Of a stretch of DNA of 53,362 nt, positions 6,001-37,819 are shown piece by piece (position 1 is the stretch's first letter; each line of letters opens with the position of its first letter). This DNA is from a virus (Duplodnaviria > Caudoviricetes). The notes below the pieces were generated by a model. The model worked only from the letters and a program-made list of their open reading frames with translations. It searched no databases and was not told the DNA's origin. A program made the translations under genes and the position numbers. The DNA lies in IMG/VR virus record IMGVR_UViG_3300044707_001188, positions 1 to 53,362 of that record. The stretch is one strand, 5' to 3'.

Positions 6001-9000
6001 GGTAGACGCCGGGCAGCGTCGGGTTGGACCGCACCGATAGGGTGGCGGTGGGGAGTACGTCCCCAGCGGAGGTGGCTTGCCCGGCTCGGGAACGTAGATC
6101 ACCTCCTCGGGCACGGGGTAGCGCCCGTCCGGCAACAGGCTGCAGGTCCTGCTGGGTTTCTGGGAAGAGGTCATAGCTGAGATCGTAATTCGAGACCGGA
6201 TCGTTGACGTTGTAGACACCGCTCTCCTCTCGCGCAAGGTTTGCGTCGCCGTCCGCCTTCCCAGTCTTCAATGGCGGCAACCCCAGCACCTCGCGCGCGA
6301 CGTCGGGGTGCGAGACAGGGATCAGCTTGCCGTCGGCCCGAACCTGCAGCAGATGCTCGACCGCGCGCCGTAGCGTGGCCTCGTTCAGGTTGCGCACCGA
6401 CATCACATCGCCGCGCTTGTAGAAGTCCTGCCTGAGCGCGTCGATCAGCCTCTGGTCCAGGTAATAGGTGCCGCCCTCGCGCTTGGCCGCCGCAACAGAG
6501 ATGCTGTAGGTGGGCGCACCCTCCCCGTGCGAACGCAGGATGCGCAGCGTCCCGGCCGCGTTCCTCACCGTCGCCCCACCGCCGGCCCGCTCGAAGAACT
6601 GCATCAGCTTGACCGGCGCCGTGAAGACCACGGCATCCGCAGCCGCCTGCTGCTTGACCTTCTCGAAGTCGTAGCCCCGGCGCATCAGCACGCCCTGCTG
6701 CACGCGCCCGTCGTCGGTGGTGTAGCTGACGATCTGCCCGGGGAACTTCGCGAACCCGGCCAGCAGGTTGCCGGTGACCATCCAGCGCTGCTCGCGCCGC
6801 ACGTTGCCACTGCCGCCGCTGTACAGGTCGAACAGCTCCGGGATGCTGTAGTAGCGGGCGGTGTCCGTCTTGGGGTCCAGGGCCGCCACCGGCTCGACCT
6901 GCTTGCGCAAGGTGACGCTGCGCCCGAGTTGGCTCACGCTCAGCGTGAGCGACCGCGCATCCCCGTTGGCCAGCGCCAGCGTGATCTTCCACGACGAGCC
7001 CGCCGCCGGGTTCTTGGTCGTGCCGGTATTCGCAATCGAGGTGATGATCCCGTAGGTGGGCACCTGCATCGAGTCGAGCACCGTCACCTGGTCGCCGACC
7101 CCGTAGTTGCGCAGCGTCTCCTCGACCAGGTTCTTCTGCATCCCGACCGTGTCGACCTGCCGCTGGATCTTCAGCGGGTCGGTGTCGGCGGCCTCCAGCT
7201 TCGCGCGCAGCGCCTGCACATAGATCGCGGTACGGGCGCTCAGGTCCCGGATCATGTCGACGCGCATCTTCAGCGCAGTCTGTCCGCCCAGGCTCTGCGC
7301 GATGGCCGCCTCGACCTCGGCGCTGGACATGGGCTTGACCGTGCGCGCCACGTCCACCTTCTCCATGTGCGCCGGCTCGGCGAACCGGGAGCCGGCATCG
7401 CCTTCGCGCTGTGCCGTCACCTGCTCGCTCGACAGCGTCTTCGCACCCAGGTTCAGCGCCTTGGCCTCCAGCTTGTTCGTGCCCATCGCGTCCTCGCGCG
7501 CGATCAGATCGTTGTAGCGCTGGGTCAGGTCGGCATAGATCTCCTCCTGCTGCTTGATGGGCAGGATGGGGATGTAGCCGGTGAGCTTGCGGATCAGCTC
7601 GTCGTCGGCTTCCTCGACCTTGTCGGGCACCTCCAGCCGGTCCTGCCCTCCGAGTTCGGCGTGGACATCGGGGTTGTCCATCAGGAACTCGGCTGCGACC
7701 TGGCCGCCGTAGTCGTTCATGAAGTCGACCACGCCCTCGGCCGTCACCGCCGACTTACGGCTGGCGGTGGTGTTGGCGTTCAGCGAGGCCATCTTCTTCA
7801 TCAGCACCGCCGCTGGCCGCATCTCGGCCGGGATGTCGGCCATGGCCTGCGTGTAGTCGGGCGTGATCACCTGCCCGGTGCGGTGCACGCGGCCGAGCAT
7901 CTGCATGTGGGTGTCGATGTTGCGCTCGGCCTGCACGATGATCATGCGGCGCTTGCGCTGGTCCTTGACCTTGGCCGATGCGTGCAGCGACAGGCCCGTC
8001 GAGCCCGACTGGTTCAGGATCAGCGCGTCGACCTCGCCGCCGTTGAAGCCCCGAATGGCCCGCAGGCGCTGGCGGATGTTGGCCGTGCGGTTGGCCAGCA
8101 CCGGCGAGGGGCCGGCGTAGTTCACCGTGATGTTGCGCCCGGTGATCTCGTCGGTCTTGAAGCCCGCCTCGCGCAGGCGGTTGTGCATGAAGTCGATGGG
8201 CGAGATGGGCGCGGCCCCGAAGCCCGCGTTGCCGATGAATTCGGCCGTGCGGTTGAACATCTTGACGAGCGACTCGCCGAGTTGCTCATCGGTCAGTCGG
8301 GACTGCTCCGGCGGCGCGCCCCCAGGGCGCTTGATCGTGATGACGCGCTGCTTTTCCAGGTAGCGCAGGTACAGGTCCCGGAAGCTCAGCGCCACCGGCT
8401 CGCCCGGGCGAAGGTCCATCTCCTTGGCGTAGTCCGCCAGGAACGAGCCCATCGTATTGGCCACGGTGAGCACCACCTTCTCGCCCGCCTTCAGCCGCTC
8501 GATGGCGAAGTCCACCGAGTCCTGCGCCTTCAGCGCAAGAAGCATCTGGTCGATCAGGTTGTGCATGATCGCGCCGAAGTTCGCGCCCTGCACCGTCGCC
8601 TTCTCGGTGCCCTTCTCGGTGATGACGGCGCCTTCCTTGTCCAGTTCTTTCTTGATGGCCTCGACCGCCGCTTCCTTGGCGCGCGAGAAGGCGAGCACCA
8701 TGCGCATGGCGGTGGCCATGTTCTCGGCCGTGGCCTTGTCGACCGTGGTCGCCCGGGTCTCGTATCCCACGCCTGCGAAGGTGCGCTCGCGCCGGATGTA
8801 CTGGCCGTCCTCGGAGAGCATCGTGGCCACGATCTGCTGCAGCGGCACGCCCCCGGTCTGGATAGCCGGCGCGAGCTGGGTGGGCTTCTCCACAGCGAGC
8901 ATCATGTTCGTGCTGCTGTACAAGTCCATCACGTCGGGGCGCTTGGCGTAGGTGGCCGAGCTGAAGAAGCTGCCCGCCGAGTTGCGCACCAGCACGCGGG

Positions 9001-12000
9001 CAAAGCCGGCGCGGCCGAGCTTGTCCTCGCCCTGCTTCAGGGCCTCGCGCTGCTCCTTCGTGCGCGCCTGCGTCGTGGAGGTACCGCCGGCGTTGTGGCT
9101 TTCGTCGAAGATGACGTAGCCGCCGTCAGCGAAAGCCTGCAGGAATCGCATCCGGGCCGTGGTCTTGCCCGCTACCGTCTGGATCTGGCTGTAGGTCGTG
9201 AAGATGACCTTGAAGCGCCCCAGGCTGCCCTCGCCGACCATGCCGTCCATCAGCTTGTTCAGCTCCGGCCCACTGGCTGGCGGGCGCAGCACGAGTTCGA
9301 GTTCGACCCGATCGCCGTTGCGCTCGCGCTGCAGCGTGTAGTCGATCGACTCCTTGCTGTTGGTCATCAGGATGCCCGGGCGCTGCGTGGACAGCCCCAG
9401 TTCCTCGGCCATGCCGATGTCGTCGAGGTCGCGGATCATGTCCGCGTACAGGTTGGGCTTCTCGGTGACGAAGATCGGCACCTTGCCGCTGCGCAGCGCG
9501 TAGCGGATCATCCCGGCCACCACGCGGCCCTTGCCGATGCCGGTCTGGTCCCCGATGATGAAGCCGCGCCCCTGCTCGGCGTTGTAGATCGCCAGCGCCA
9601 GCGCGTCGACCTGCTCGGCCGAGAAGTAGCCGGCGAGTTCAAGCGGGTCGTACTCGAGCTTCTGGGCGACGAAGGCGTCGAGATCGCCCACCGCCGCCTG
9701 CACGCGCTCCAGCGACTTCTGCACCGAATCGCGCATCGCGCGCGGCACCAGCGTGCCCACTGACGGCGCGCTGGAACCCGGCGTGTAGGCCACCTGTCCG
9801 GCGGTCTCCTGCTCCTGGCCGCGGCGGTCGCTCAGTCCAGGCTTGACGAGCTGGTCTCGGCCAGGGCCATCTCCAGCCACGCCTCCAGATCGGTTTCCTC
9901 CAGCGCCTCCCGGACGGCCTCCATCCGCACCGTCGGGCGAGCGGGCACCTTGGCCGGGAACGGATTGATCCGACTGTTCATCTGAAGAGACAGCACCGTC
10001 TGCAGATGCAGGTTGTGGCTGAACAGGCTGCCGCCCGCCTCGTATGCCCTCACGACTCCCATCACGCCCATCGCCGACAGCGCCCGATTGGCCATCCGCA
10101 GGCCTTGCGGATGTTGATCCACCATTCGGTTGATCCGGTCCTCCACGGCGTCCATCCACGCCCACTGCGTCAGTTCGCCCGGGGGCACCATCACCCCGCA
10201 CAGACCCGCCTGGACGTTCGGGGGACACCACGGCACCAGAACCCGACGCTGCTCCTGGGGCGTTGACGGCGGCGTTTGCATCCAGCTTCTCCTTCAGGGC
10301 CGGCCACGAGTCGAAGCGCACCGGCAGTTGGGCGGCGGGCAAGGGTCGAGTGGCCTTGCCACCACGGCCCGCGATCACGATCACGTCCACGGGGTAGCCG
10401 GCGCCCTGGCGCGCGTACAGATCGCCGTCGACCGTGAAGTGGTCGACGACCTGGTAGTCGTTGTACAGGCGGAAGTAGAACTCCCGCTTGGCTTTGGCAC
10501 GGTAGCCGTCACGGATCTCGTCCTCGGCGCGGGCATCCACCCCGCCGACGATCAGCACGGCGCGGCCGTCGTCCTTGAGTGATTCGAGGGCCTTCATCGC
10601 GATGGCGTGGTCGACCTCCCGCGTCGCGAAGAACGGCGCGGCGGCCCACACGGTAGGCTCGCCCTTGTCATCGCGCACCACCCCGAAAGGCGGGTTCATC
10701 ACCGCCACATCCAGGGACTTCGGCGGGGCCAGCGCAGAAGTGGCCGCGTCGTTGCGCTGCACCTCGAAGCCCAGGGCGCGAGCGTTATCGGCGCGCTCGG
10801 CGTTCAGCTCGTTGACGACGGCATCCTTTGGGGCGACCTCGATCAGCAGCATCGTGTTGCCGGCCGTGGGCTCGCCCACCTTGTCGCCGGGCTTGATGCC
10901 CGCCAGGCGCGAGGCCAGGAAGGCCAGCGGCACCGGCGTCGAGTAGGCCTGCTCGCGCACGCTGGTGGACGAGCGCATGCCCAGCACCGGCTGCAGGCCG
11001 TACAGGTTGACCAGGCGGTCGTAGATGACACCATCGGTGCGCCCCTGGCGCCGTGCAGCGGCCACGATCTCGCGCCCGGCCAGCACGACGGCAACTTCCA
11101 CCGTCTCGTCGGCCCGCTTGGCAGCCTGTGTGCCGGGCTCCACGGGCTGACCGGTCAGCTCAGCGATGAACTTGCGGGCCTCGACGATGGTCTTGAAGCC
11201 CTCGCCGCCGAGTAAGCGGTCGGCGAGGGCCTGGGCCGTGGCGCGGCGGCCGGAGGCGGTGGTGAGGGATGGGCGTTCGGCAGCGTTCTGGGTGGTTTGC
11301 AGTTCTGGAGCGGTGTTGTCGGTTTGCGCGTTCCGCTTGTTTTGCGCGTCTTGCGCGATTGCCGCGTCCACGTCGATGTCCTCGACGTCGGCTGCGCGGT
11401 CCATGTCCGCTTTGAACGACGCTGCGCGAGGGTCGTTGCGCACCGCCAAGTACCACGACACCAGGTAGGGTTTGACGGCCTCACCCAGGTCGTCGACCAT
11501 CGCCCGCGCATAGGCAGCAAACCGGCGCGCACCGCGCTCGATGTGATACCCCGCCAGCGTGATGCCATCCAGCAGCGTCTCGGGGTCGATGCCCGACTGC
11601 AGGCGACCGAGCTTCTTGCGTAGGCGCTCGCGCGCCGCCTGGGCCGCATCCTCGGTGAAGATGGTGTTCGGCTTGGCAGCCGCAGTGGCGTCAGACGGTG
11701 CGGCGGGGGTGGAGGAATCGACCGGCGCCCCAGGCGTCTGCCCGGGCGCGCCAGCCGACGGGGTCAGTACCCCGGTTTCGGGGGCTTCTTGCCCTTGCCC
11801 TTCTTCATCATTGGTCGCTCCTTGGCGGGTTGCGGGCGCGCTTGCCGGGGCGCTCGATGCCGGGGTTTGGCGCCTCTGAGCGGCCGGGGGCTTACCGCCA
11901 AGTCGGTAGAAGCCCACCGCCGTGTCGACGATGTCCTGTGCGGTGCGGAAGTCCAGATCGGCTTGGCGCTGCTCGTCGCTCTGCATCAGCAGACGGTGCA

Positions 12001-14812
12001 GGGCCTGGCCTTGGGGCGTGATGCTGCTGTTGTCAGCCAGACCACGGTGCCGCAGGGCGTCCCGCAGGGCTGGGTTCTTGACGCCTTCCAGACCCCGATC
12101 CATCGCATCGGTGAGCCCGCCGACAACTTCATCCGGTCCGAACCGCAGTTGTCCTGGGGTCGGCTCGGGACGGGTCGCAGCGGGTGGAATCGCCGCAGGC
12201 GCTACCCCGCCAGTAGCCGTTTGTGCGCCGGCACCGGCGTTGGCCAGTGGGCCTGCGCCACCTGCAGCAGTTGGTGGCCTGCCCGTGTTGTCGATGGGTC
12301 CTTGTCCTGGCTGCCCTGGCGCACCAGCAGCGCCCCGAGGATCGCCGCTGCCATCGGACTGTCCTGCGCCCTGGGGCTGGGCGGGTGGGGTGTTGGCTTG
12401 TCCATCCGGGGTGATCTCCTTCGTCAACTCCGTGAGCACGTCCGACGGCGCAGGCGTGTCGCCGAACAGGCCTCCGCCCTGACCCGCCTGGCTGACGAGC
12501 CGGGTGTATTCCTCCAGCAGGCTGACCACGCGGTCGCGGCCCAGCGGGCGGGTGAGGAACTCGCCGCCATAGAACAGGCGCAGCGCGCTCAGCATCAGCG
12601 GATCCGGCGTCTGGCCGGTGGTCAGATCCACCTGTCGCGACAGGTCGTGCAGGCTGCGCCGGTCCTGACGAGCGCGGCGGATCATCCGCACGGCGTCCAC
12701 CACCGCGGGGGTGATGTCGGCCGAGGGCTCGACCGTGCCCGCGCGCACCGAGTCCCGCAGGTTGGCCCAAGCCCCTGCCGACAGCTTCAGCGCCTCGCCG
12801 ATGGTCTTGATGTCGGTGTCGGTGGACTCGAACATCTCCGAGATCAAGTCGGGGTCGCCGTAGGCGGCTTGCGCCATTGCGGCCTGGATGCGCGACCGCC
12901 CAGTGGGCGACAGGAAGCCCTCGCCGGTCATCAGGTTGGCAATGTCCTGCCCGGCGCCGTGCAACTTCCCGACGAAGGCGCGTACGAAGTCGCGGTTGTC
13001 CCGGGAGGCGACATCGCCGCCCTGCCACATCGCCAGAACGCTGGAATCGATGAGCCGGGCGTCCTGGCGCGCCAGCTCGGCCGGCGACATCCCCAGCCCC
13101 TGCCCTTGCGACAGCGCCGCCATGTTGGCGACGTTGCTCGCATCGGCATACAGCCGCACGAGCACCGGGTTCGCCGTCGAGCGGATCACGGCAGGGTCCA
13201 CCCCGTGCTGTGGCGCATCACGCTCGAGTTCGGCCTGATAGTTCGCTGCGGTCCCCGCCTCGTAGGCGCGGCGCAGGCCGGCCGTGCGCCCGTTGTTCAA
13301 GGCCTTGAGGGTGCCTGGAGCGGCATTGCCGAAGGCCGGGTTCACCGACCCGTCGGCAAAGTTGCTGGGCTGCAGAGCGTTCGCATCGACCACCGCGTAG
13401 CGGAAGGGCACACGCCGACCGTCGGCCATCACGGCCACGTCCTCGCGGCCCAGGGCCGATGGGGGAACGAGCGAGGTGTCGTCCCCCACCGCGAACACCA
13501 TCGGCGCACCGGCGTCGGGAGAGCGACTGGGACCCAGGCGCAGATAGTCGGGGTTGGCCGCGATCGACTGCATCTGCGCGATGGAGGCTGCGCGCGTGCG
13601 GTCGCGGTTCTGGGCGTCGAGTTCGGTGTCGGCGGGCGCCGAAGTGCCGGGCCCTGTGGGCGTCACACCCAAGGGCAGGATGCTCGCCTCATCCGACGGC
13701 ACCCCGAGCTGCTGCGAGAGACGCGCGCGCAGCGCCTGCTCCTGCGGCGTCAGCGCCCGGGTCTGAGCCAGAACGTCCAGTTCGGCCAAGCGGACCAGCG
13801 GATCGGGTGCCGGGGTCCGTGGCGTTGATGCGGGCGTCGGCGTGGAAGGCGGCGTTGGCGAGGAAGGCTGCACAGGCGCAGGCTGACCCAGGCCGGCATT
13901 CGCATAGTCCAGGGCCCCACCGACAGCCCCGCCCGGTGCAGCCAACGCCCCTTCGAGCACCGCCGAGCCCGCCACACCCCGATAGGCCGGCGTCGGGAAT
14001 CCCGCACGGTCGGTGGCGACGTTGGCGGCGTACTGCTCCTGCCCGCCTTGGGCCGCCTCCAGCGGCACCTCGCGCGCCACGCCTGCGAGCACCGAGCCCG
14101 TAAACGGCACAACACCTCGCTGGGCCGTCGATGCGGCCACGCTCTGCGCAGCCTCACGGCCGAGCACACGCGCAATGGCGCCTTCGACACCGGTGACAGA
14201 GGCTGCGCCGCCAAGCGCAGCGCCGCCGGCGATCAGCCCGGGGTTCTCAGCGTAGCTCTGGGCCTGGGTGGCGATGGAACGCGCATCGGCCTCAGAACGG
14301 CCTTCCTGACGCGCCCGCTCGTAGACCTGGTCGTAGATCGCCGACTTGACGACCCCCGTCCCCTGCACTGCGCCTACGCCGCCGAGCACCCCGAGACGGG
14401 CGCCCCAGGAAGCTTCACGCACGCCTGGGAGGAGTGAGGCCGCGATAACGGGCGCGCCGGTGGCCACCGCGCCGAGTCCCATGCGCACCGGGGCGATGCC
14501 GGCCGCGCGCAGGGCTTGCATGGCCTGCTCGCCAACACCCTTGTCCTCGGCGTCGCGCATGATTCGCGCAACTTCTTCGTCCTCGTACTGGGCGCGAAGG
14601 CTCTGCAGGCCCTTGACGGCCTGGTCGGCCACCCGCAGGCCACCGGAGACCGCGTTGTCCGCGCCGGCCACGTCGGTGATGAAGCGCAGGCCCTTGATCC
14701 CCCCGCTGACCACTTCGAGGCCCAGGTCCCCGGCGCTGCGCAGCACACCCGGGTTGGCGGACTCCGGGATGACCGGCTTGATCCCGAGTTCGTCGAAGAG
14801 GTTTCGCGCCAT
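32..14812 (-). CDS. Giant polyvalent / DarB-like internal virion protein: hydrophobic N-term, DdrB-like ParB domain, N6-adenine MTase, Strawberry-notch SF2 helicase, JAB/RadC, zincin peptidase, putative ART, LPD38-like C-term
   Basis: Motifs VPFRYAVVDA..NNGR (~13410-13290); YSTP, EPTAG, NPPF (~10950-10685); GDQTGIGKGR, DESH, QMLGRVHRTGQ (~9560-7870); HNHPSG..SRAD (~5740-5700); HEILH (~4590); IPEFVKER..IPLPLG..NRDWTGRPI (~970-650). ATG 14812 (MARNLFDEL) preferred over TTG 14851. Confidence 0.9.
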   Translation of the reverse strand: MARNLFDELGIKPVIPESANPGVLRSAGDLGLEVVSGGIKGLRFITDVAGADNAVSGGLRVADQAVKGLQSLRAQYEDEEVARIMRDAEDKGVGEQAMQALRAAGIAPVRMGLGAVATGAPVIAASLLPGVREASWGARLGVLGGVGAVQGTGVVKSAIYDQVYERARQEGRSEADARSIATQAQSYAENPGLIAGGAALGGAASVTGVEGAIARVLGREAAQSVAASTAQRGVVPFTGSVLAGVAREVPLEAAQGGQEQYAANVATDRAGFPTPAYRGVAGSAVLEGALAAPGGAVGGALDYANAGLGQPAPVQPSSPTPPSTPTPASTPRTPAPDPLVRLAELDVLAQTRALTPQEQALRARLSQQLGVPSDEASILPLGVTPTGPGTSAPADTELDAQNRDRTRAASIAQMQSIAANPDYLRLGPSRSPDAGAPMVFAVGDDTSLVPPSALGREDVAVMADGRRVPFRYAVVDANALQPSNFADGSVNPAFGNAAPGTLKALNNGRTAGLRRAYEAGTAANYQAELERDAPQHGVDPAVIRSTANPVLVRLYADASNVANMAALSQGQGLGMSPAELARQDARLIDSSVLAMWQGGDVASRDNRDFVRAFVGKLHGAGQDIANLMTGEGFLSPTGRSRIQAAMAQAAYGDPDLISEMFESTDTDIKTIGEALKLSAGAWANLRDSVRAGTVEPSADITPAVVDAVRMIRRARQDRRSLHDLSRQVDLTTGQTPDPLMLSALRLFYGGEFLTRPLGRDRVVSLLEEYTRLVSQAGQGGGLFGDTPAPSDVLTELTKEITPDGQANTPPAQPQGAGQSDGSGDPRGAAGAPGQPGQGPIDNTGRPPTAAGGAGPLANAGAGAQTATGGVAPAAIPPAATRPEPTPGQLRFGPDEVVGGLTDAMDRGLEGVKNPALRDALRHRGLADNSSITPQGQALHRLLMQSDEQRQADLDFRTAQDIVDTAVGFYRLGGKPPAAQRRQTPASSAPASAPATRQGATNDEEGQGQEAPETGVLTPSAGAPGQTPGAPVDSSTPAAPSDATAAAKPNTIFTEDAAQAARERLRKKLGRLQSGIDPETLLDGITLAGYHIERGARRFAAYARAMVDDLGEAVKPYLVSWYLAVRNDPRAASFKADMDRAADVEDIDVDAAIAQDAQNKRNAQTDNTAPELQTTQNAAERPSLTTASGRRATAQALADRLLGGEGFKTIVEARKFIAELTGQPVEPGTQAAKRADETVEVAVVLAGREIVAAARRQGRTDGVIYDRLVNLYGLQPVLGMRSSTSVREQAYSTPVPLAFLASRLAGIKPGDKVGEPTAGNTMLLIEVAPKDAVVNELNAERADNARALGFEVQRNDAATSALAPPKSLDVAVMNPPFGVVRDDKGEPTVWAAAPFFATREVDHAIAMKALESLKDDGRAVLIVGGVDARAEDEIRDGYRAKAKREFYFRLYNDYQVVDHFTVDGDLYARQGAGYPVDVIVIAGRGGKATRPLPAAQLPVRFDSWPALKEKLDANAAVNAPGAASGSGAVVSPERPGGSVRGDGAPGRTDAVGVDGRRGGPDQPNGGSTSARPADGQSGAVGDGRDGSREGIRGGRQPVQPQPASADGAVSSDEQSDQSVPGQGARSPDGADGGRPGGAGGNRSGGVAGDGPGRDQLVKPGLSDRRGQEQETAGQVAYTPGSSAPSVGTLVPRAMRDSVQKSLERVQAAVGDLDAFVAQKLEYDPLELAGYFSAEQVDALALAIYNAEQGRGFIIGDQTGIGKGRVVAGMIRYALRSGKVPIFVTEKPNLYADMIRDLDDIGMAEELGLSTQRPGILMTNSKESIDYTLQRERNGDRVELELVLRPPASGPELNKLMDGMVGEGSLGRFKVIFTTYSQIQTVAGKTTARMRFLQAFADGGYVIFDESHNAGGTSTTQARTKEQREALKQGEDKLGRAGFARVLVRNSAGSFFSSATYAKRPDVMDLYSSTNMMLAVEKPTQLAPAIQTGGVPLQQIVATMLSEDGQYIRRERTFAGVGYETRATTVDKATAENMATAMRMVLAFSRAKEAAVEAIKKELDKEGAVITEKGTEKATVQGANFGAIMHNLIDQMLLALKAQDSVDFAIERLKAGEKVVLTVANTMGSFLADYAKEMDLRPGEPVALSFRDLYLRYLEKQRVITIKRPGGAPPEQSRLTDEQLGESLVKMFNRTAEFIGNAGFGAAPISPIDFMHNRLREAGFKTDEITGRNITVNYAGPSPVLANRTANIRQRLRAIRGFNGGEVDALILNQSGSTGLSLHASAKVKDQRKRRMIIVQAERNIDTHMQMLGRVHRTGQVITPDYTQAMADIPAEMRPAAVLMKKMASLNANTTASRKSAVTAEGVVDFMNDYGGQVAAEFLMDNPDVHAELGGQDRLEVPDKVEEADDELIRKLTGYIPILPIKQQEEIYADLTQRYNDLIAREDAMGTNKLEAKALNLGAKTLSSEQVTAQREGDAGSRFAEPAHMEKVDVARTVKPMSSAEVEAAIAQSLGGQTALKMRVDMIRDLSARTAIYVQALRAKLEAADTDPLKIQRQVDTVGMQKNLVEETLRNYGVGDQVTVLDSMQVPTYGIITSIANTGTTKNPAAGSSWKITLALANGDARSLTLSVSQLGRSVTLRKQVEPVAALDPKTDTARYYSIPELFDLYSGGSGNVRREQRWMVTGNLLAGFAKFPGQIVSYTTDDGRVQQGVLMRRGYDFEKVKQQAAADAVVFTAPVKLMQFFERAGGGATVRNAAGTLRILRSHGEGAPTYSISVAAAKREGGTYYLDQRLIDALRQDFYKRGDVMSVRNLNEATLRRAVEHLLQVRADGKLIPVSHPDVAREVLGLPPLKTGKADGDANLAREESGVYNVNDPVSNYDLSYDLFPETQQDLQPVAGRALPRARGGDLRSRAGQATSAGDVLPTATLSVRSNPTLPGVYQVNDQLVQVNVRDLPVASVKTWQDAVDALQAIGDYAVEHMDVLITNMAGKPLAVVGSFKGAIAQTAVYPTTILAEALRIKGAATAWGVHNHPSGSAELSRADEYLNQAVASVFRDTSIRWTGMAAVANGGDWRAVEGDGANFVSGKVRPGKTVARIPVVDRLIRRVDSANVVIDTPSRAKDVVQNLAGGQPGIVFVSHSHRVTAWVPMIQEEMLSLTKEGRLDRLLNSGAFSGSAAYLLSIPVQGGSKVEVARAERAAQNMANALARLDLRLLDVIDPVTRSSMAERGTQPSGSVGGTLSNLAPMNPGRHEAAGVTRRSARKALEEDFAPDDGEAEVPRIQAARRLSKLAERLAKGEIDDEQYILAVRMLTAELDAAAQAKRHKRVFGRSRKRGADLVRERLLQARRRGDLDPDDVAFALWALDRNPALAADLGISIESPGEDTPSGDYNPTTRVMRLFKGDALRGTAVHEILHHAERMMPAPMQGRIRAEWAKALAAGYKNATSEQRQALDHILPAMAGDRSARDALKSAFAKGVLKYDPHYQLVNPSEFWAVNATRLLHRRYAASDAMWRRIMVWMREMVERIKGLLGARADAAVLRAMEYVVGADNDGSFQSRQMLFEGVSGILDNRKASDITTMARLQRVLREGVGGRPVYLRFARDIEGDVRGRRSKNWVDGRREMGLSVVQLVESPDALGYYQPFEDLPQDHPANLGGGISNYIDYLGFRHAKGAYLVTGDVVGIGSDGEPLLVNASVIGELSKTVLVEGLMAWSQEQERRDVQQGRAPGLVASNEKFLTNELRLGAELEEVKRAASAPDAGPSPVLENPAPARRGADAEPDVNRMTPAQIEAEIRELIPRVEKAYEAGPRSASMAERLDARLETLMDALESSFAELEEDQMTRADLLNPLLLHKLQDGEAGDSEADIVRDLANVWREMTDARSPYGGMMPPEQADFIRGMVDDYAWRHGGMEPNLPDSVVLDAAQDAFAAVYGLRARQLARIQRERANASKVAPVRRASDGRPVLLENLAPPPPSQPNAAGPNPPPQPGPAQRSRWQALKQRVIALTSPEALDKLIYEFQDKFVDLKRIRARIQALGGAISDLNDAYLGEELFHKRLARRTQVFLDDELRPLLAEMRERGVTMEDFERYLHARHAAEANAEMARRNPSQVELDARRAQANADVKALELRLQSAVARGTSTRALNEALDAARETQSVWRRAQAFRGTEEERLSLSGMSDAEAAAVIAALTPPRLADMDALAARVDAVNARTLELLEHYGLMERSVLDAWRRAYRYYVPLHRDEAHPDSVAHPTGMGFNVKGPAARQRVGSNERVTHILGHIAMQREAALTRGEKDLVLKKLYVMAAQNPDPDLWRVDELPVIKVVDPFTRTVRKVADPNYRNLPYVLMLRIAGQDVAITFNERNPQALRLAHSLKNLDIGDLHAAVTLVAKGTRWFASVNTQYNPVFGVINFARDAQSGLLNLSTTALAGREREVASGVFPALRAIYRQERGKQAANPANRQWIDLWKQLQEAGGSTGYRDLYANIEDRTRELEKELGRLDRGAAGKTVHYVLDWLSDYNEAMENAVRVSAFKVALDQGMSTERAASLAKNLTVNFNRKGRQTREIGAFYAFFNAAIQGTVRMWETLRGPMGRKIMLGGVLLGAVNALIGMAVMGGDDDGDDHWDKIPEFVKERSLIVPLGREDYLSIPLPLGFHFLPNVGRLAVEFMLGGPDKTAGRQIGRLLQVMLDAFNPLGGSQTFSQMVTPTVADPAVALWQNRDWTGRPIYRETMNPLDPQPGTAMAKDSATPWAKAASELTNWITGGTKYQPGMWSPTPDQIDYVIGQLTGGIGREIGKLAQTVSAPYTGDELPPHKIPLLGRLYGNTRGISGQSEAFYENVKRLNQIENELQGRAKNREDVEAYRRGEPLADMVAEGNKAEAAVSRLRRMRREVQLRQEEGYQERVRGIDAEIARVMEGLNRGVTGRLQALNLSN
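9832..10281 (-). CDS. Putative nested (+1 frame) 149-aa protein inside the MTase-helicase linker of the giant gene
   Basis: AAGGAG-7nt-ATG; product has globular-like composition while the host frame here is a G/R/D/P-rich linker. Confidence 0.55.
   Translation of the reverse strand: MQTPPSTPQEQRRVLVPWCPPNVQAGLCGVMVPPGELTQWAWMDAVEDRINRMVDQHPQGLRMANRALSAMGVMGVVRAYEAGGSLFSHNLHLQTVLSLQMNSRINPFPAKVPARPTVRMEAVREALEETDLEAWLEMALAETSSSSLD
11764..11811 (-). CDS. Putative nested 15-aa basic peptide MMKKGKGKKPPKPGY (+1 frame)
   Basis: AAGGAG-6nt-ATGATG...TGA read directly on the minus strand. Confidence 0.3.
   Translation of the reverse strand: MMKKGKGKKPPKPGY
12202..12405 (-). CDS. Putative nested 67-aa ORF (+1 frame) in the linker after the ParB-like region
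   Basis: AAGGAG ~10 nt upstream of ATG; helix-like core MAAAILGALLVRQ; host frame is low complexity. Confidence 0.3.
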   Translation of the reverse strand: MDKPTPHPPSPRAQDSPMAAAILGALLVRQGSQDKDPSTTRAGHQLLQVAQAHWPTPVPAHKRLLAG

Positions 14813-14853
14813 GAGCAAGCCGCCAGCCGCCGAGTTGAGACCGGCGTCCAAGG

Positions 14854-14864
14854 TGCCATGCTTG
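14854..14864 (-). promoter_or_regulatory. Putative late-promoter motif CAAGCATGGCA (copy 1, upstream of giant gene)
   Basis: Exact 11-mer, intergenic; here inside the inverted repeat GGTGCCA-tgct-TGGCACC (14852-14869). Confidence 0.65.
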
Positions 14865-14881
14865 GCACCCGATGCGGCTGC

Positions 14882-17389
14882 TCAGCGGCGCGGCGGTGGC
14901 GCGTCGGTGACGCGCGGCGGGTTGGCGATACGGATACCCCCGTCGCGCTGATTCAGAACGACCAGACCGGCCCGCCTGACGGCTTCGACGAATCGCCCGA
15001 AGGCCTCCTCGGGCGGCTCTTCGGATTGCGCGGTGACAGTGATCTTGCTGCTGACATCGTCATCCACCTTGATCTGCCGGCCGGTGGCGGCGGCCACCGC
15101 TCGCGCAACGGCAGCAGTGGGCGCGTCCTTGAAGGACATGCGGATGGGCGCGGCAGGTGGTGCGACGGGCTGCGCGGACGAGGTAACAGCGGGGGAATCC
15201 GACGCCGATGGCGCGACAGAGCGCACGCCGGTGCTTGCCAAAGCCGCAGCGGACGGTGCCGTGACTGCGGGCGCCGCGGAGGCCGGCGAAGCGGCTGCCT
15301 GCGGCGATACCGGTACGCCAGGCGCCGGTGCAGAGTTCGACACGATTGGCGCAACTGGAGGTTGTGTGGTGGGCGCCCGAACTGACGCTTCTCGCCGCGA
15401 GTGCGCCTCGATGGAGGCGGGCGCAGGCGGGGCTGCAACCGTAACCGCGCCGCCTGCAGCGGCTGAAGTTGGCGCGGCAGCAGGAACCGGCCGCGCCGGA
15501 ATCCTCGGCGGCCCGAGGTCGATCCCAGGCGCAATGGCGCCGGGTGGCGGCGCCGCAGACGTGGCGGGTGCCACAGGAGCGGGCGCTGCGACTGGCGCAG
15601 CCGCCGGCGCGCCGGCGCCCTGCTTCTCCCGCGCGTCGTTGGCATAGACCACGGCCTGCAACTGGTCCACCGTCATGTTCATGCGCCCGGCGAGCTGCTC
15701 CATGACCTGATCCATCGGCAGCTTGGCACTCCGAGCAGTCTCCTCCAAGGCCCGGGTGGTCACCGTCGGAAGGAACGCGTTCACTTTGCTGGAATCGACG
15801 CCAGAGGTGCCGCCGCGCGCCGCAGTGCCAGCCGCAACCGGCGCAGAGCCCGGCGCCTCGATGGTGGCTGGCGCACCCACCTTGCCGTCCGGGGCCACGG
15901 GCGTGATCAGGACGCGGCCGTCCCGCAGGCGCTGCGTCACGGTGCCACCGCCGCCCAGCGGGTTGGGCGTGAAGGTCGATTCGACTTTGGGCTCCGAGGG
16001 GACCACCTGGATCACGCCCAGCCGCGCGGCGTTGATCTGGGCCGCCGACGCGTTCGGGTTGAGCTGCCTGAAGAGGGCTTCCCGCGCGTCCTGCTCGGCC
16101 TTGGTGGCGACGCCACGGGCGTCGGCCGCTGCCTCTGCTCGCCTGTCGTCGCGCGCGAGGTTGGCGACATAGGCGTCGTCTCGCCGCACGTTGGAGGCGT
16201 TCGCAGCGCCCTGGTTGTTGGCCGTCATCACTGCGCGCGCCTGCTCGTTCTCGGCCTTGATCACCTCAGCCAGCGTCTTGTTGACCCCCGCGATCATCTT
16301 GAAGGCGCGGTCGGGGTTGGTCTGCAGCAGCTGGCCCGCCGCCCAGAGTTCGGCCTGGTCGGCGCGGGACAGGCGCAGGAACAGAGCCCGCTTGTCCGGC
16401 TGCACGATGGAGGCCTGCCGGATGCCGGTCTTCGGGTCCGCATCGCCTATCGTGATGCCCGGCGAGCCGGCGTTGAGCAGCTCGATGGACTTGTCGACCT
16501 GGGCCTGCGCGCCGTCGTAGCCCTTGCGGAAGTCGTTGACGACGTCGTCGATAACCTGCTCCTGGCCTTTCTCGAACAGGTTCTGGAACTGCCCACGGTC
16601 GCCGCGCAGCCTGGCCGACTCCGCCATGCGGAACAGGTTCATCGCCTTGTCGGAGTAGCGCGGGCCGGCGGCAGGCTTCGCCGGCTCAGGGGCAGCAGCA
16701 GGCGCAGGGTTGCCCGGCGAGACAGGGCTTGCCACTTGCGGGGAACCGGGTGCGGCTATCGCCGGCGGCACTGCGGACGGGCTGGAGGTGGAAGGTGTCG
16801 CCTCTGCTGGTCTGGAGCCTTCCGGCCGGAAGAACCCGACATCGCCCTCAGCCACTGCCACCGCACGCCCGACGCCCACGGGATCGACCGCGCGCTGCAG
16901 CCGGCCCATTGCGGTGCCCTGGGTCCACAGGTACTGCAGACCACGCGTGATCGCGCTGGCCCGAGGGTTCTCTCGGTACCACTGGGCCTGCTGCTCGGGG
17001 GTCATCTGCTCCCAGTCGGTGGGCGCCGCGCCGGCTGCGGTCGTAGAACCAGGCACCTCTGCCGCGGTGGCGAGCGGCACCGCAGATACCGCTGGCATCG
17101 CAGGCCCTGTCGATACGACGGCCGGTCGTGGCGCAGCAGCCGCCTGAGGTGCGGACTGCAACGGCCCGGGGTCGATGCCCACCCCGCGCACGATCTCGGC
17201 GTCAATGGCATCCGCACGGCGGTTGTTCTCAGCGCGACGCTCGGCTTCGGCGACGCCCAATTCGAGCTGGCGCAGGCGGAGCTTGCGCTCCTCTTCCTCG
17301 CGCTTGACCCGATCCTCCCGCTCCTTGCGGTCGAGGGCTGCCTGGGCAGCGGACGAGCCGATCTGGAATCCCGTCTGGAACGCGCCCAT
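14882..17389 (-). CDS. Internal virion/ejection protein with Pro/Ala-rich linker and C-terminal secretin (GspD) N0-like domain
   Basis: MGAFQTGFQIG N-terminus typical of ejection proteins; position in ejection cluster; C-term IRMSFKDAP..AVARAVAAATGRQIKVDDDVSSKITV. Confidence 0.75.
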   Translation of the reverse strand: MGAFQTGFQIGSSAAQAALDRKEREDRVKREEEERKLRLRQLELGVAEAERRAENNRRADAIDAEIVRGVGIDPGPLQSAPQAAAAPRPAVVSTGPAMPAVSAVPLATAAEVPGSTTAAGAAPTDWEQMTPEQQAQWYRENPRASAITRGLQYLWTQGTAMGRLQRAVDPVGVGRAVAVAEGDVGFFRPEGSRPAEATPSTSSPSAVPPAIAAPGSPQVASPVSPGNPAPAAAPEPAKPAAGPRYSDKAMNLFRMAESARLRGDRGQFQNLFEKGQEQVIDDVVNDFRKGYDGAQAQVDKSIELLNAGSPGITIGDADPKTGIRQASIVQPDKRALFLRLSRADQAELWAAGQLLQTNPDRAFKMIAGVNKTLAEVIKAENEQARAVMTANNQGAANASNVRRDDAYVANLARDDRRAEAAADARGVATKAEQDAREALFRQLNPNASAAQINAARLGVIQVVPSEPKVESTFTPNPLGGGGTVTQRLRDGRVLITPVAPDGKVGAPATIEAPGSAPVAAGTAARGGTSGVDSSKVNAFLPTVTTRALEETARSAKLPMDQVMEQLAGRMNMTVDQLQAVVYANDAREKQGAGAPAAAPVAAPAPVAPATSAAPPPGAIAPGIDLGPPRIPARPVPAAAPTSAAAGGAVTVAAPPAPASIEAHSRREASVRAPTTQPPVAPIVSNSAPAPGVPVSPQAAASPASAAPAVTAPSAAALASTGVRSVAPSASDSPAVTSSAQPVAPPAAPIRMSFKDAPTAAVARAVAAATGRQIKVDDDVSSKITVTAQSEEPPEEAFGRFVEAVRRAGLVVLNQRDGGIRIANPPRVTDAPPPRR

Positions 17390-17392
17390 CGC

Positions 17393-18406
17393 TCAGACCT
17401 CCATCCACTGGATACCGAGCCGGGCGTAGTCCACGCTCGCGTAGCCCGAGCCGTCATAGCTGACCGCACCCGGGTCGATGCGCTCCACCTCGTCGGCCAT
17501 CACACCGCGGAACCGCCGCCCCTCAGCGTCGTCGAGATAGCCGAACTCGTACAGCGTCAGTCCCGTACGACCGTCATGCCCGACGGCGACGATGTCGGTC
17601 TTCAGGCGCCGGTCGCTGAACATGAACTTCGTCACCCCGCCGGCTACCGCCCCAAGGATGGTGTTGAACGGGTCGTTGGCGGCCGCGATCTGATCCTGGT
17701 TGTTCTTGTAGTTGGCCTGCGCGTTCCACATCCCTGTGGCGTTGGCCCCCATCGAGGCCGCGCCGGCGTTGGCCATGCCGAAACCCGCGTTCATCCCGGC
17801 TGCCCCGGCGTTGGCCGCACCCTGGGCGCCGAGCGCCATGTTGACCGTCTGGCCGGTGGCGCTTGTGGTCATCGCCGGGTAGCCCGCAAGCGCGTTGGAA
17901 GCCCGGTCGGTCAGCGCATAGCCCTCGGCGCGCGCGGCGCGGCGGGCGTTGTTCATGCCGCCTGCCGTCAGCGCAGCCTCACCCAGCACCAGGCGCGCAT
18001 CACCGGCTCGGCCCGAGCCAGGCATGATCCCGCGACGGGCCAGGTCCCGCCCCGACGAAGCACGCGCGTTGGCAATGGCGATCTGGGCGTCGGCTCCCGC
18101 CTCCTGGGCGAGTTCGTCGCGGCGCGCCCGGGCGTCGAAGGTGTTGGCGTCCGACACCAGGCGGTCCTGCACGCCGCTGAGCATGGCCCGGCGCGTGAGC
18201 ATCCAGCTGCGGTCGGCCTGCGTGTCGGCAGCGCCCTGACGCGCCTGGTCGAGCGCGAACTGCGTGGCCTCGCGCTGCAGCGGCAGCATGGACTCGGAAT
18301 TGCGGACGATGCGCTGGATGACGTCGTCCTGCACCTCCATCGAGCGGATCTGTGCCTCGGTCAGGCGCGGATCAGGCGGCGGCGCATCGGAACCCTTGGT
18401 ACCCAT
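17393..18406 (-). CDS. Ejection/pilot protein with C-terminal intramolecular chaperone (peptidase S74-like)
   Basis: GGAG RBS and ATG at 18406 (MGTKGSDAPPPDP); Ala/Gly/Asn-rich helical body; SDRRLK..GVMADEV..VDY. Confidence 0.8.
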   Translation of the reverse strand: MGTKGSDAPPPDPRLTEAQIRSMEVQDDVIQRIVRNSESMLPLQREATQFALDQARQGAADTQADRSWMLTRRAMLSGVQDRLVSDANTFDARARRDELAQEAGADAQIAIANARASSGRDLARRGIMPGSGRAGDARLVLGEAALTAGGMNNARRAARAEGYALTDRASNALAGYPAMTTSATGQTVNMALGAQGAANAGAAGMNAGFGMANAGAASMGANATGMWNAQANYKNNQDQIAAANDPFNTILGAVAGGVTKFMFSDRRLKTDIVAVGHDGRTGLTLYEFGYLDDAEGRRFRGVMADEVERIDPGAVSYDGSGYASVDYARLGIQWMEV

Positions 18407-18408
18407 GG

Positions 18409-18828
18409 TCAGGTCTCCAGGAAACGGCAGTCGGCCCGCCACATCACATAGAGGATCACGTCGCTGCCGTCGTGTGCGGCTGCGGCGAGCCGCGCCTCCG
18501 GCACAAAGCCCAGGTGGCCGCAGAAGCGCCGTGAGGCCACGTTGCTCGAGTCCACGTGCGCGCTGACGCGCTGGACGCCGCACACCTTGAACGGGTAGAC
18601 GAAGCAGGCGCGCAGGTAGTCCCGGGTCAGCCACCGCCCGCCGGGCTCAGCAGCGACGTGCATCCAGACGTTGTGCCGGTTCAGCCCTTCGTAGACGACC
18701 CCGGCAACCAGCCTCGCGTGACGCACGAGCCCGATGGCGACCATCCCCTCGGTCAGCCGCAGCCCGGGCAGGAAGCGCCGCATGAAGGCAGCGACCCTCG
18801 GCAGGTCGTAGTCGAACTCTTGGGGCAT
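18409..18828 (-). CDS. GNAT-family N-acetyltransferase-like virion-associated protein
   Basis: AGVVYE..WMHVAA..WLTR..YPF..N..SRRF..HLGF..E; typical position before podovirus ejection genes. Confidence 0.8.
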   Translation of the reverse strand: MPQEFDYDLPRVAAFMRRFLPGLRLTEGMVAIGLVRHARLVAGVVYEGLNRHNVWMHVAAEPGGRWLTRDYLRACFVYPFKVCGVQRVSAHVDSSNVASRRFCGHLGFVPEARLAAAAHDGSDVILYVMWRADCRFLET

Positions 18829-18841
18829 GGCGGGGGCAGAC

Positions 18842-18852
18842 TGCCATGCTTG
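18842..18852 (-). promoter_or_regulatory. Putative late-promoter motif CAAGCATGGCA (copy 2)
   Basis: Exact 11-mer 13 nt upstream of the GNAT ATG; 18 bp (18835-18852) identical to 34951-34968. Confidence 0.65.
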
Positions 18853-18856
18853 CCAC

Positions 18857-18898
18857 CAAGGGCGAAGCGCTCCGACTTGCAGCGCTTTTCAGCCCTTG
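18857..18898 (-). terminator. Stem-loop after tail-tip gene (terminator or mRNA-stability hairpin)
   Basis: CAAGGGC..AAGCGCT / AGCGCTT..GCCCTTG inverted repeat right after the stop; no clear U-tract. Confidence 0.4.
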
Positions 18899-18903
18899 AG
18901 ACT

Positions 18904-20823: not shown

Positions 20824-20826
20824 GAG

Positions 20827-20890
20827 CTACGACATATCTACGAGCAAACTACGAGGAAACCACGACAAAAACACGAGGAAAACACGACGG
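20827..20890. repeat. Six degenerate 11-bp tandem units (ACGA core + A-rich spacer) filling the intergenic space before the tail-tip gene
   Basis: ACGA at 20829, 20840, 20851, 20862, 20873, 20884. Confidence 0.85.
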
Positions 20891-20899
20891 TCGGCTCTC

Positions 20900-22564
20900 C
20901 TACACCTGCGCCAGCTCGGCGATGCTGGTGGCGATGGCCGCGGTCTGCACCGCGCCCGTGCCCTCGAGCTCGATCTGCCACTCCACCGCCATGAAGCCCG
21001 CCGGCAGGCGGAAGGCCTGGCGGTTGGCTACGGTCTGGGTGTGGCGCAGCACGCCGTCGGCGTAGACCCGCATCGTCACCGGGTAGGCGTCGGCCGAGAC
21101 CTCGCCCGCCGCAAAGCACAGCGGCCTGGGCGCGCGGTGCAGCTTGCTGCGGAAGCGCCAGGTCATGCCCGTGGCGCCTGCATCCCAGCGGCGCACGTTG
21201 GTGCCGTCCAGCACGTACAGCTGGTCCAGCAGCTCGTCGAAATGCAGGCCCTCGTAGCCGGTGTCGAGGAAGTAGATCCCGGCGTTGGGGTCGCCCGGGT
21301 TGAGCATGAAGCCCTTGCGCGAGGCCCCGTTGTCGGTGGAGTAGCTGCCGAAGTACAGGCCCTCGAACAACCGCCCGACGATGCTGGAAGGCACCAGGGC
21401 CTGCCAGTCCTTGCGCGTCATCAGGCCGGCGGTGAGGATGCGCGCGCCGCCGCTGCCGTACCAGCACAGCCCGTCCTCGCTGGCCCAGGCCACGCCCGAG
21501 CCCATGTTGACAATGGAGCGCGCCGACACGCAGCCCTGCGGCAGATCTAGGGGCGTCTGGTCCATGCCTTCGGGCGTGGAGCCCGCCGCCAGCAGCGGCC
21601 GGCCCGTGGTCAGCACCAGCAGCGCCTGCCCGAACACGCCCAGGCCCACGGGCTTGCCGTCGGGCGGCACGATGTCAAACTCGGCCGGCCAGGCGTAGGG
21701 CACGTAGGGCTCGCACAGGCGCACCGCGTTGCCGCTGATGCCGACCAGCATGCCGTTCCACAGCGCGGTCAGGTGCGTGAGGTTGCCCTCGGTGCCGGCG
21801 CCCGCGCCCACGGGAACGCCCGGTGCGGGCAGCCAGGTCGTGGTGGGCAGCACCTCGCCCAGCGTGCGGTTGTCGTCGGTCGTGCTGCTGTCGCCCAGGG
21901 CGATCTCGCGCAGGAAGAAGAACTCGGTCGCCCCGCTGGCGCCGGTGGCAGTGCGGTAGAGGCGCCGGCGGTTGACGCCGTAGTTCCCAGCGGGCACGGC
22001 CGCGAAGCCGCCGATGGTGGCCGTGTCATCGGTCTTGCGGGTGTTGGCCGCACTCGGCGGGCTGGGCGCGCTCTCCCAGCCCCAGTCGTTGACGTAGGTG
22101 TAGACGTAGAACACCGTCTGGTTCTGCGTCGAGGTGCCGCCGGCCACGGTGGTGACGGTGGGCCCGGTGGCCGGCGCCGGCAGGCCCAGCGGGCGCGTGG
22201 CGGTCGGGTTGTCCTGCGGGTCCGTGGTGTCCAGCGCCAGGTTGTCGGTGACCTTGGGCGCGCCGTCGCCGGTGAAGAAGGTGCGCTCGCTGGTGTCTGC
22301 CGGGTCGAACCCGCGAACGGCGTGGACCGGACTTGAGGTCCAGCTCAGCCAGGCGGTGGCGTCGTTGGCCACGTCGCGGCCCATGCGGTAGATGCTCTTG
22401 CGGCCCGACGGGACGGTGGCCACGGTAAGCGGCTGCAGCCAGGCGCGCAGGTCGCCCCGGCCGGGCTTCTGGTTCAGGCTGACCACGCCCTGAACGTCGG
22501 GCAGCAGCGTCGGATGCAGCGCGCGGTTCTCGCCGGCAAAGCCGAGCAGGCGGATGACGGGCAT
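20900..22564 (-). CDS. Podovirus tail nozzle/stabilisation protein (probable beta-propeller)
   Basis: 554-aa beta-rich ORF; YVYTYVNDWGWESAPSP, SEPY-like CEPYVPYAWP, GC.S.RS, WRFRSK motifs seen in podovirus tail proteins; position. Confidence 0.7.
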   Translation of the reverse strand: MPVIRLLGFAGENRALHPTLLPDVQGVVSLNQKPGRGDLRAWLQPLTVATVPSGRKSIYRMGRDVANDATAWLSWTSSPVHAVRGFDPADTSERTFFTGDGAPKVTDNLALDTTDPQDNPTATRPLGLPAPATGPTVTTVAGGTSTQNQTVFYVYTYVNDWGWESAPSPPSAANTRKTDDTATIGGFAAVPAGNYGVNRRRLYRTATGASGATEFFFLREIALGDSSTTDDNRTLGEVLPTTTWLPAPGVPVGAGAGTEGNLTHLTALWNGMLVGISGNAVRLCEPYVPYAWPAEFDIVPPDGKPVGLGVFGQALLVLTTGRPLLAAGSTPEGMDQTPLDLPQGCVSARSIVNMGSGVAWASEDGLCWYGSGGARILTAGLMTRKDWQALVPSSIVGRLFEGLYFGSYSTDNGASRKGFMLNPGDPNAGIYFLDTGYEGLHFDELLDQLYVLDGTNVRRWDAGATGMTWRFRSKLHRAPRPLCFAAGEVSADAYPVTMRVYADGVLRHTQTVANRQAFRLPAGFMAVEWQIELEGTGAVQTAAIATSIAELAQV

Positions 22565-37749: not shown

Positions 37750-37779
37750 GATTGAGCGTCGTCGGGAATGTGGCGAGGC

Positions 37780-37790
37780 TGCCATGCTTG
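37780..37790 (-). promoter_or_regulatory. Putative late-promoter motif CAAGCATGGCA (copy 5, portal operon)
   Basis: Exact 11-mer 30 nt upstream of ATG 37749, at the boundary of the moron. Confidence 0.65.
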
Positions 37791-37819
37791 GGGCGATACA
37801 ACGAGATTTCGGAGCACCT

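Follow-up and report, generated by a model that had tools for sequence, protein, structure and literature searches.

A type II secretin N0 domain tethered to a candidate ejection protein of a Bcep22/933W-type prophage

RESULTS

A GspD-type N0 domain at the end of a tethered prophage protein

We found that P0001, a protein encoded by a prophage, ends in a genuine N0 domain, specifically of the type II secretin (GspD) type, which hangs on a long disordered tether behind a helix-rich core. The gene lies in a 53,362-nt stretch of DNA (IMG/VR record IMGVR_UViG_3300044707_001188; the whole stretch is called the window here), which is part of a 136-kb bacterial contig in a 5.19-Mb assembly and carries a temperate podophage of the Bcep22/933W type as a prophage. 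P0001 is an open reading frame (ORF) of 835 aa on the minus strand (14882..17389); it belongs to a family of 11 homologous clusters, and its gene order is repeated at two other loci, L015 and L016. The N0 domain (residues 752-821; 14927..15136, minus strand) is confirmed as one of the type II secretin kind by its Pfam score, by the tiers of its structural matches, and by its matches among viral structures.

The GspD-like N0 family PF21305, whose curated cut-off is 27 bits, matches residues 752-821 of P0001 over positions 2-71 of the 71 in the model, where the full-length sequence scores 34.4 bits (E 2e-8) and the last 100 residues alone score 39.6 bits (E 4.6e-10). A six-frame PF21305 search of the whole assembly returned the same site, 14927-15136, with 39.8 bits (E 1.8e-9), and the match is far above chance. 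The Mu gp44-like hub domain Gp44-like_2nd (PF22255) reaches 17.2 bits (E 0.0049) on P0001, under the 27-bit cut-off, and no other hub domains are present. A preliminary description of this DNA had proposed a comparison of the last ~90 aa with both GspD N0 and STN domains; the GspD N0 likeness held, whereas STN (PF07660) gave no match at E ≤ 1 in P0001 or in its last 100 residues. STN is, however, found in the host PilQ.

We modelled the last 100 residues with AlphaFold2 from a 26-row alignment (A2); the model has a mean predicted local distance difference test score (pLDDT) of 77.4 and the element order β-α-β-β-α-β-β. In a Foldseek search of the PDB with this model, N0 domains of type II secretion system (T2SS) secretins rank first (LspD 7pmp with E 3.7e-5, XcpQ 5ngi, and GspD 4jtm of enterotoxigenic Escherichia coli, ETEC), and they are followed by PilQ N0 and then by Mu-type hub proteins, the PupR and FecA signalling domains, InvG, and DotD. 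The T2SS secretin N0 domains reach Z 11.4-12.8 in VIA-align. XcpQ and ETEC GspD, the rows from crystal structures, align across 75-81 residues with a root-mean-square deviation (rmsd) of 1.4-2.4 Å, and the top row, the nuclear magnetic resonance model 7pmp, aligns over 90 residues with an rmsd of 6.4 Å. The lower tiers hold the PupR CCSSD (6ovk, Z 9.9), MxiD N0 (9.6), PilQ N0 (8.4-9.8), and FpvA (8.4), with hub proteins at Z 6.8-7.8 (3cdd, 1wru, and 3d37 at 7.0-7.8). Among the viral structures of BFVD, the best matches of the N0 domain are filamentous-phage secretins (f1 pIV, E 3e-5), and viral hub or tail proteins are also found. In addition, P0001 matches the filamentous-phage secretin family phrog_1012 with E 0.0058. 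The GspD N0-like domain that the preliminary description had read at 14900..15150 is thus borne out by the Pfam score of 39.6 bits and by Z 11.4-12.8; the peptide that it had quoted (IRMSF...GLVVL) corresponds to residues 749-812 (14954-15145, minus strand), inside that range.

P0001 is modular: its helix-rich core is followed by a semi-rigid Ala/Pro tether (~160 residues) and then by the C-terminal GspD-type N0 domain. In the N-terminal part (16661..17389, minus strand), residues 3-69 form a long charged helix and residues 125-180 a further helical segment, and two Ala/Pro linkers are disordered. The helix-rich core (244-515) and a small helical domain (533-591) follow at 15617..16660 (minus strand) with pLDDT 65-88, and the tether (592-751) occupies 15137..15616 (minus strand). 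The full-length model has a mean pLDDT of 58 and disordered stretches at residues 72-122, 182-243, and 592-754, and its core (residues 247-510 in this model) consists mostly of helices with few strands. The long Pro/Ala tether named in the preliminary description is readily seen in residues 592-752, where Ala makes up 32% of the 161 residues and Pro 22%, and where pLDDT in the full-length model stays below 50; its length differs between homologues. The core is the best-conserved part of the family, and the invariant columns are concentrated at residues 250-445.

The core has no Pfam or PHROG family match, and a Foldseek search of the PDB with the full-length model matched the N0 part alone and nothing in the core. 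A protein-atlas look-up of P0001 was uninformative (scores ≤0.83, TM ≤0.37). Neither the N1-N3 domains (PF03958) nor the secretin pore (PF00263) was found in P0001 by Pfam at E ≤ 1, and the host GspD and PilQ have both. Because the maximal 19-residue Kyte-Doolittle mean is 1.23 and the N terminus is charged, this hydropathy heuristic suggests that P0001 has no signal-peptide-like or membrane-spanning segment.

Sequence comparisons indicate a portable tether and N0 cassette

A word-indexed search of 5.8 billion proteins yielded the 11 clusters of the P0001 family (family 1). PF21305 is present in seven of them (P0001-P0007), two of which end at a contig edge. The other four (P0008-P0011) have no N0 domain; they have the N-terminal ~450 residues in common with the others, but their middle is different and their C-terminal end is helical. 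An exhaustive HMMER search of representative proteins with the last 100 residues of P0001 returned 34 proteins, comprising the P0001 family, many secretins or secretin N-terminal fragments, and the 825-aa P0038. Three top matches (P0012, P0013, and P0014) were discarded as compositional, with many matched stretches and, in P0012 and P0013, repetitive sequences.

P0038 has the same build as P0001, with PF21305 at residues 748-811. Its family (family 2, proteins of ~630 aa) also comprises 11 clusters, and an Ala/Pro linker followed by N0 is found in two of them (P0038 and P0097). Eight clusters stop after the core, at 547-671 aa, and the remaining one (P0101) continues through a linker into a different, helical, coiled-coil-like end. 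When the profiles of the two families are compared, the match is limited to the region of the linker and N0, with a probability of 93.8%. Because N0 is patchy in both families and the profile match is confined to the linker and N0, the tether and N0 domain are an optional and portable cassette, carried by two cores that are unrelated. The question whether homologues carry or swap the domain, raised in the preliminary description, is answered in the affirmative: it is a swappable C-terminal module, carried by 7/11 clusters in family 1 and 2/11 in family 2. The C-terminal ends of the N0-less P0008-P0011 and of P0101 are a helical, charge-rich module (for example, ...QWRAELDRMYKDLDAQRRELVAKDK) with no Pfam match, which may be an alternative docking or oligomerising end.

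A genome contig scan gave the two loci L015 and L016, both from Rubrivivax-type metagenome-assembled genomes (MAGs). Each carries an N0-bearing P0001 homologue in the same gene order, directly followed by a giant ORF that is cut off by the contig end. Of 401 genomes of the same order that were searched with a profile, 18 gave matches, the genome of the window (G000) included. Cellular secretin N0 domains account for 15 of the other 17 and partial core matches for two (G398 and G009), and no other full-length P0001 homologue was found among the 401 genomes. In G398 (locus L018), a 530-aa protein encoded upstream of a homologue of the giant gene shares residues 438-516 of P0001 with 44% identity (E 1e-14) and has no tether and no N0 domain.

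Origin and constraint of the phage N0 domain

We built a tree of 49 N0 domains after 9 of the 58 domain hits had been dropped as multi-domain or partial proteins (P0017, P0019, P0020, P0023, P0026, P0032, P0037, and P0041). Nine family-1 and two family-2 domains form one clade with support of 97/93, separate from 36 cellular GspD N0 rows that include the host's own. The tree is suggestive of a phage-specific N0 clade and is not firm, because long branches meet in it and it has only 77 columns. The phage N0 domain is 33% identical to the host GspD N0 (E 4e-9). Recent capture from the host's own GspD was considered and rejected, being unlikely because of this identity and the separate clade.

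Codon comparisons with the two MAG homologues gave nonsynonymous to synonymous rates (dN/dS) of 0.178/0.881 and 0.431/1.122 for the N0 domain, that is, ~0.20 and 0.38. These values are similar to those of the P0001 core in the same two comparisons (~0.24 and 0.29) and indicate that the phage N0 is under purifying selection. In the tether, dS is saturated and the length is variable.

Host secretion components as candidate partners

The host T2SS genes for GspM, GspN, and GspD lie on contig C54, and a GspG gene lies on contig C76, alongside a divergent gene for a 225-aa protein (G000:C76:668-1342, plus strand). A search for the host GspC found none by PF11356 at E ≤ 0.001 and none by TIGR01713 at E ≤ 1, and the divergent protein itself matches PF11356 with E 0.075 only. 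PF11356 is found in its homologues, which their sources name GspC, and through them the 225-aa gene is confirmed, at the level of sequence, as that of GspC. This host GspC is short, with no PDZ or coiled-coil domain detected, and its gene stands apart from the gspM-N-D cluster. The host also encodes PilQ and PilP; the phage N0 domain has no significant BLAST match to the host PilQ. Whole-genome searches for HR, PilP, and T2SSC-like domains at E ≤ 10 matched C76 and C143 only and found none in the prophage, which is a mild argument against a phage-encoded partner of the HR, PilP, or T2SSC type.

According to PMC3169554, β1 and α1 of GspD N0 provide the main surface to which the GspC HR domain binds, by β-strand augmentation, and β1 of GspD N0 contains a family-conserved Phe. 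This Phe is kept in all phage copies, F753 being invariant in alignment A1 and nearly invariant in A2, and F753 is probably the counterpart of ETEC Phe9. The TGR/K motif is also kept. A hand count on the alignment of the phage and host GspD N0 domains gave 11/25 identical positions in β1-α1 and 11/41 in the remainder.

We predicted the complex of the host GspC HR (residues 60-150, 51-row alignment) with the N0 domain (residues 8-95, 26 rows). On the scale used, 116 of 157 solved complexes reach the ipSAE pass mark, as do 2 of 215 mismatches. The predicted HR-N0 complex reaches an ipSAE of 0.44 (0.42, 0.44, and 0.45 in the runs) compared to 0.00 in three controls, which places it in a weak band, up to 0.60, that holds only 18 of the 157 solved complexes together with both passing mismatches and in which predictions fail more often than they hold unless the pairing was already likely. 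At least 94% of the contacts are common to the runs, and the partner pLDDT is at least 75.

Gene position and prophage context

The P0001 gene starts 3 nt past the stop of its upstream neighbour and ends ~30 nt ahead of the giant ORF. The gene order is that of Bcep22: a gp67 equivalent, a GNAT-like ORF (gp69), a gp70-like gene, P0001 in the position of gp74, and the giant gene (gp75). By its position, P0001 thus corresponds to known virion proteins. Bcep22 gp74, directly upstream of gp75, is annotated as virion-associated. The JC1 protein in the corresponding position, gp68, is listed in Table 6 of PMC9144972 with 9 unique peptides in CsCl-purified virions by mass spectrometry, and 933W has a 421-aa ORF (L0133) in the same position. 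Passages of the phi24B preprint (bioRxiv 10.64898/2026.04.10.717836) describe its LPD38 giant, gp47, as detected in virions and absent from the cryogenic electron microscopy map, and propose that it is an encapsidated ejection protein. In the P0001 model, helices are parted by three disordered linkers, which would be the build expected of a protein that threads through the tail.

The giant gene (32..14851, minus strand), downstream of P0001, encodes a 4939-aa LPD38/DarB-like polyvalent protein equivalent to Bcep22 gp75 and phi24B gp47. It contains ddrB-ParB, a methyltransferase-like stretch, a Strawberry-notch (Sno/SNF2)-type helicase (AAA_34 and Helicase_C_4), RadC/JAB, and LPD38, with a weak DUF6098 match and a DarB-like PHROG match. 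Judged from its likeness to the L018 homologue, its true start is likely a Met 13 codons inside the listed TTG ORF.

Upstream of P0001, a gp70-like virion-protein gene (17393..18634, minus strand; true start probably near 18409) encodes a product with 31% identity to Bcep22 gp70 (E 2e-13) and a C-terminal Peptidase_S74 chaperone domain, which suggests a self-cleaving fibre or needle protein. The Peptidase_S74 intramolecular-chaperone end is also found in the L015 and L016 homologues, and the PHROGs labels of relatives of this protein include both 'DNA ejection protein' and 'tail fiber'. In the position of Bcep22 gp69 lies a GNAT acetyltransferase-like ORF (18409..18828, minus strand) with a weak match below cut-off (E 5.7e-4). 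The gp67 equivalent is a 554-aa 'internal virion / head closure' protein (20900..22564, minus strand; phrog_511, E 6e-123), which by tblastn is ~30% identical to proteins of Bcep22, BcepIL02, DC1, Ralstonia phage GP4, and Stx-converting phages.

The prophage also encodes an integrase (52127-53362), a portal (34974-37340), a major capsid protein (32536-33654), a helicase, a primase, a Cas4-type exonuclease, a large terminase, an endolysin, and an Rz spanin. Between the portal and large-terminase genes, a 1107-aa ORF (37724-41047, plus strand) with seven DUF5122 beta-propeller repeats (E 4.7e-82) forms a low-GC island (GC 0.45, compared to ~0.68 around it) and looks like a recently inserted moron. 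In the late module, a 1543-aa ORF (24971-29602, minus strand) has no Pfam or PHROG match; roughly the same region of Bcep22 holds tail-fibre and pectin-lyase-like genes.

DISCUSSION

A capsid-delivered docking module as a tentative reading

The results led us to favour, tentatively, the possibility that P0001 is a capsid-delivered docking module that acts in the periplasm, with GspC as its most likely partner. P0001 would be packed into the capsid along with the giant LPD38/DarB-like protein encoded next to it, and at infection it would leave through the tail and enter the periplasm. To our knowledge, every characterised secretin or TonB-type N0/STN domain acts in the periplasm, and because P0001 has no signal peptide, ejection is its only evident route to that compartment. 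There, the tethered N0 domain would imitate the docking domain of a secretin and bind an inner-membrane-anchored, HR-type β-sandwich partner. Among the candidates, the GspC of the host T2SS would be bound by β-strand augmentation, as in the GspD N0-GspC HR complex, and this docking would fix the ejection conduit, the giant protein, and the DNA to the inner membrane or point them towards it. The identification of GspC itself is doubtful. The account in full, in which a secretin mimic captures GspC and uses it at the inner membrane as a receptor or port through which the genome and a protein cargo of ~5000 residues would pass, and in which the cassette moves between unrelated ejection scaffolds as a host-targeting module, is as a whole unlikely.

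Several observations weigh against this proposal. By tblastn, neither P0001, nor its N0 domain, nor P0038 has a homologue in 50,697 phage records, a megablast of window positions 14000-22000 against phage records gave nothing, and the viral contigs and metagenome contigs that we scanned contain no P0001 homologue; because of this, no studied phage carries P0001. P0001 shows no detectable similarity to Bcep22 gp74 (BLASTP E 0.61, hhalign probability 9%), and neither P0001 nor its parts match the gp74 family phrog_9667 or any other PHROG family. It is gene position that makes the presence of P0001 in the virion or its ejection probable; by position and gene order, the 'phage ejection protein' of the preliminary description is plausible. 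The N0 domain is dispensable for core function, as 4/11 family-1 and 9/11 family-2 clusters are without it. Some other secretin N0 domains are 41-42% identical to the phage N0, above the 33% of the host GspD. The surplus identity in β1-α1 may reflect residues that define the fold of the family. The ipSAE of the HR-N0 complex may likewise reflect only family likeness or the memory of solved relatives, because a similar complex has been solved (3oss, 6hcg). The preliminary description had suggested that the protein may dock on a host inner-membrane secretion component; the GspC score of 0.44 against 0.00 in the controls speaks weakly for this, and the weak band and the solved complex temper it. 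A purely structural role of N0 is also possible, because the fold occurs in phage tail-hub proteins (Z 6.8-7.8).

Other explanations, in order of weight

The weightiest alternative to a host-docking module is that N0 is a structural or oligomerising part of the phage's own ejection apparatus that would assemble into a ring or attach to another phage protein (the LPD38 giant, the needle, or the nozzle) and have no host partner. N0-like domains are used in this way in the Mu gp44 and T4 gp27 hubs, and the N0 domain of pIV works with the phage protein pI. The weak Gp44-like_2nd match (17.2 bits), the hubs in the PDB fold lists and in BFVD, and the long-branched clade of the phage N0, which fits adaptation to a phage-specific partner, also agree with such a role. 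However, the T2SS N0 domains are clearly closer (39.6 bits and Z 11.4-12.8, compared to 17.2 bits and Z ≤ 7.8 for the hubs), and the domain hangs on a disordered tether of ~160 residues and is not packed in a hub. Since N0 is also optional in both families and the searches at E ≤ 10 for an HR, PilP, or T2SSC-like domain gave nothing in the prophage, we consider a phage-internal role rather unlikely.

Delivery to the periplasm with a different host partner, namely PilP, the C-terminal domain of a FecR/PupR-type anti-sigma factor, or a secretin ring, would agree with the presence of PilQ and PilP in the host and with the structural scores of the PupR CCSSD (Z 9.9) and PilQ N0 (Z 8.4-9.8); passages of PMC3169554 describe a common fold of PilP and GspC HR. 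We regard this as quite unlikely, as the sequence is of the GspD type, with no STN match at E ≤ 1 and no significant BLAST match to the host PilQ.

P0001 might not be ejected at all and might instead be a cytoplasmic assembly or packaging helper for the giant protein, with the N0 fold re-used for a cytoplasmic interaction. The model for such a helper is provided by the P1 Dar accessory proteins. The P0001 gene is tightly linked to the giant gene at all loci seen, and P0001 has no signal peptide; the JC1 paper states, in its passage on P1, that DarB requires accessory proteins (PMC9144972). However, the Bcep22 and JC1 proteins at this position are in virions, and a tether this long and flexible is better suited to spanning a compartment than to scaffolding. 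In addition, we know of no N0/STN domain that acts in the cytoplasm, and a helper role is improbable. Finally, the preliminary description also named the jamming of a host secretion component. Competition of N0 with GspD for GspC that would jam the T2SS, as a host-takeover or exclusion function, draws on the same GspD N0 likeness and weak GspC complex score as the proposed docking, but it is highly improbable given that an ejected virion protein arrives in few copies, that blocking secretion has no evident benefit, and that P0001 has no signal peptide for delivery to the periplasm from a lysogen or late in infection.

Relation to known systems

Compared to the N0 domains of T2SS secretins (GspD, XcpQ, and LspD; 3ezj, 4jtm, 5ngi, and 7pmp; GspC HR complex 3oss), that of P0001 is of the same family and fold and keeps the β1 Phe and the TGR/K motif. 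Unlike in these secretins, it stands at the C terminus of a non-secretin, behind a 161-residue tether and without N1-N3, pore, or signal peptide, and falls in a separate clade. The pIV protein of the filamentous phages (f1/M13; phrog_1012), the best viral structural match, also provides a phage-encoded N0 domain, but pIV is a complete exported secretin for virion egress, whereas P0001 has N0 alone, on a tailed-phage protein with no pore. The signalling domains of TonB-dependent transducers, which bind FecR/PupR, and of the VreA type use the same fold as a periplasmic docking unit; these modules are cellular, exported, and of the STN type, whereas the N0 domain of P0001 is phage-borne and of the GspD type.

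Bcep22 gp74 (532 aa), JC1 gp68 (510 aa), and 933W L0133 (421 aa) resemble P0001 in position and orientation within a syntenic late module. They show no detectable similarity to P0001 by sequence or profile, and they differ in family: gp74 belongs to phrog_9667 and L0133 to phrog_601, whereas P0001 belongs to no PHROG. Unlike P0001, gp74 has no Pfam N0 domain, and neither gp74 nor L0133 has a secretin-type PHROG match. Podophage ejection or internal core proteins include T7 gp14/15/16 and P22 gp7/20/16. P0001 would resemble such proteins in having no signal peptide, in being rich in helices and linkers, and in travelling inside the capsid until its release to the periplasm. As proposed in passages of the phi24B preprint, gp47 counts among them as well (bioRxiv 10.64898/2026.04.10.717836).

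A full-text literature search, outside which most subscription journals lie, found no description of a secretin N0 domain on an ejection or internal virion protein of a tailed phage. N0 domains, podophage internal proteins, and polyvalent giants are each known; their combination and its cassette-like spread appear to be new. Even if N0 were merely structural, P0001 would represent a new domain architecture in a family without Pfam or PHROGs annotation.

Little is understood of the way in which short-tailed phages traverse the periplasm and select their site on the inner membrane, where few of their partners are known. If the proposed docking is true, a capsid-delivered secretin docking domain would offer a testable handle on this step, with GspC as a candidate host partner and a small domain that can be deleted. 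A tether with a docking domain would then follow a modular logic like that of the receptor-binding modules of tail fibres, but within the envelope, and the use of the N0 fold would extend past pores, receptors, and tail hubs to a portable, phage-borne adaptor.

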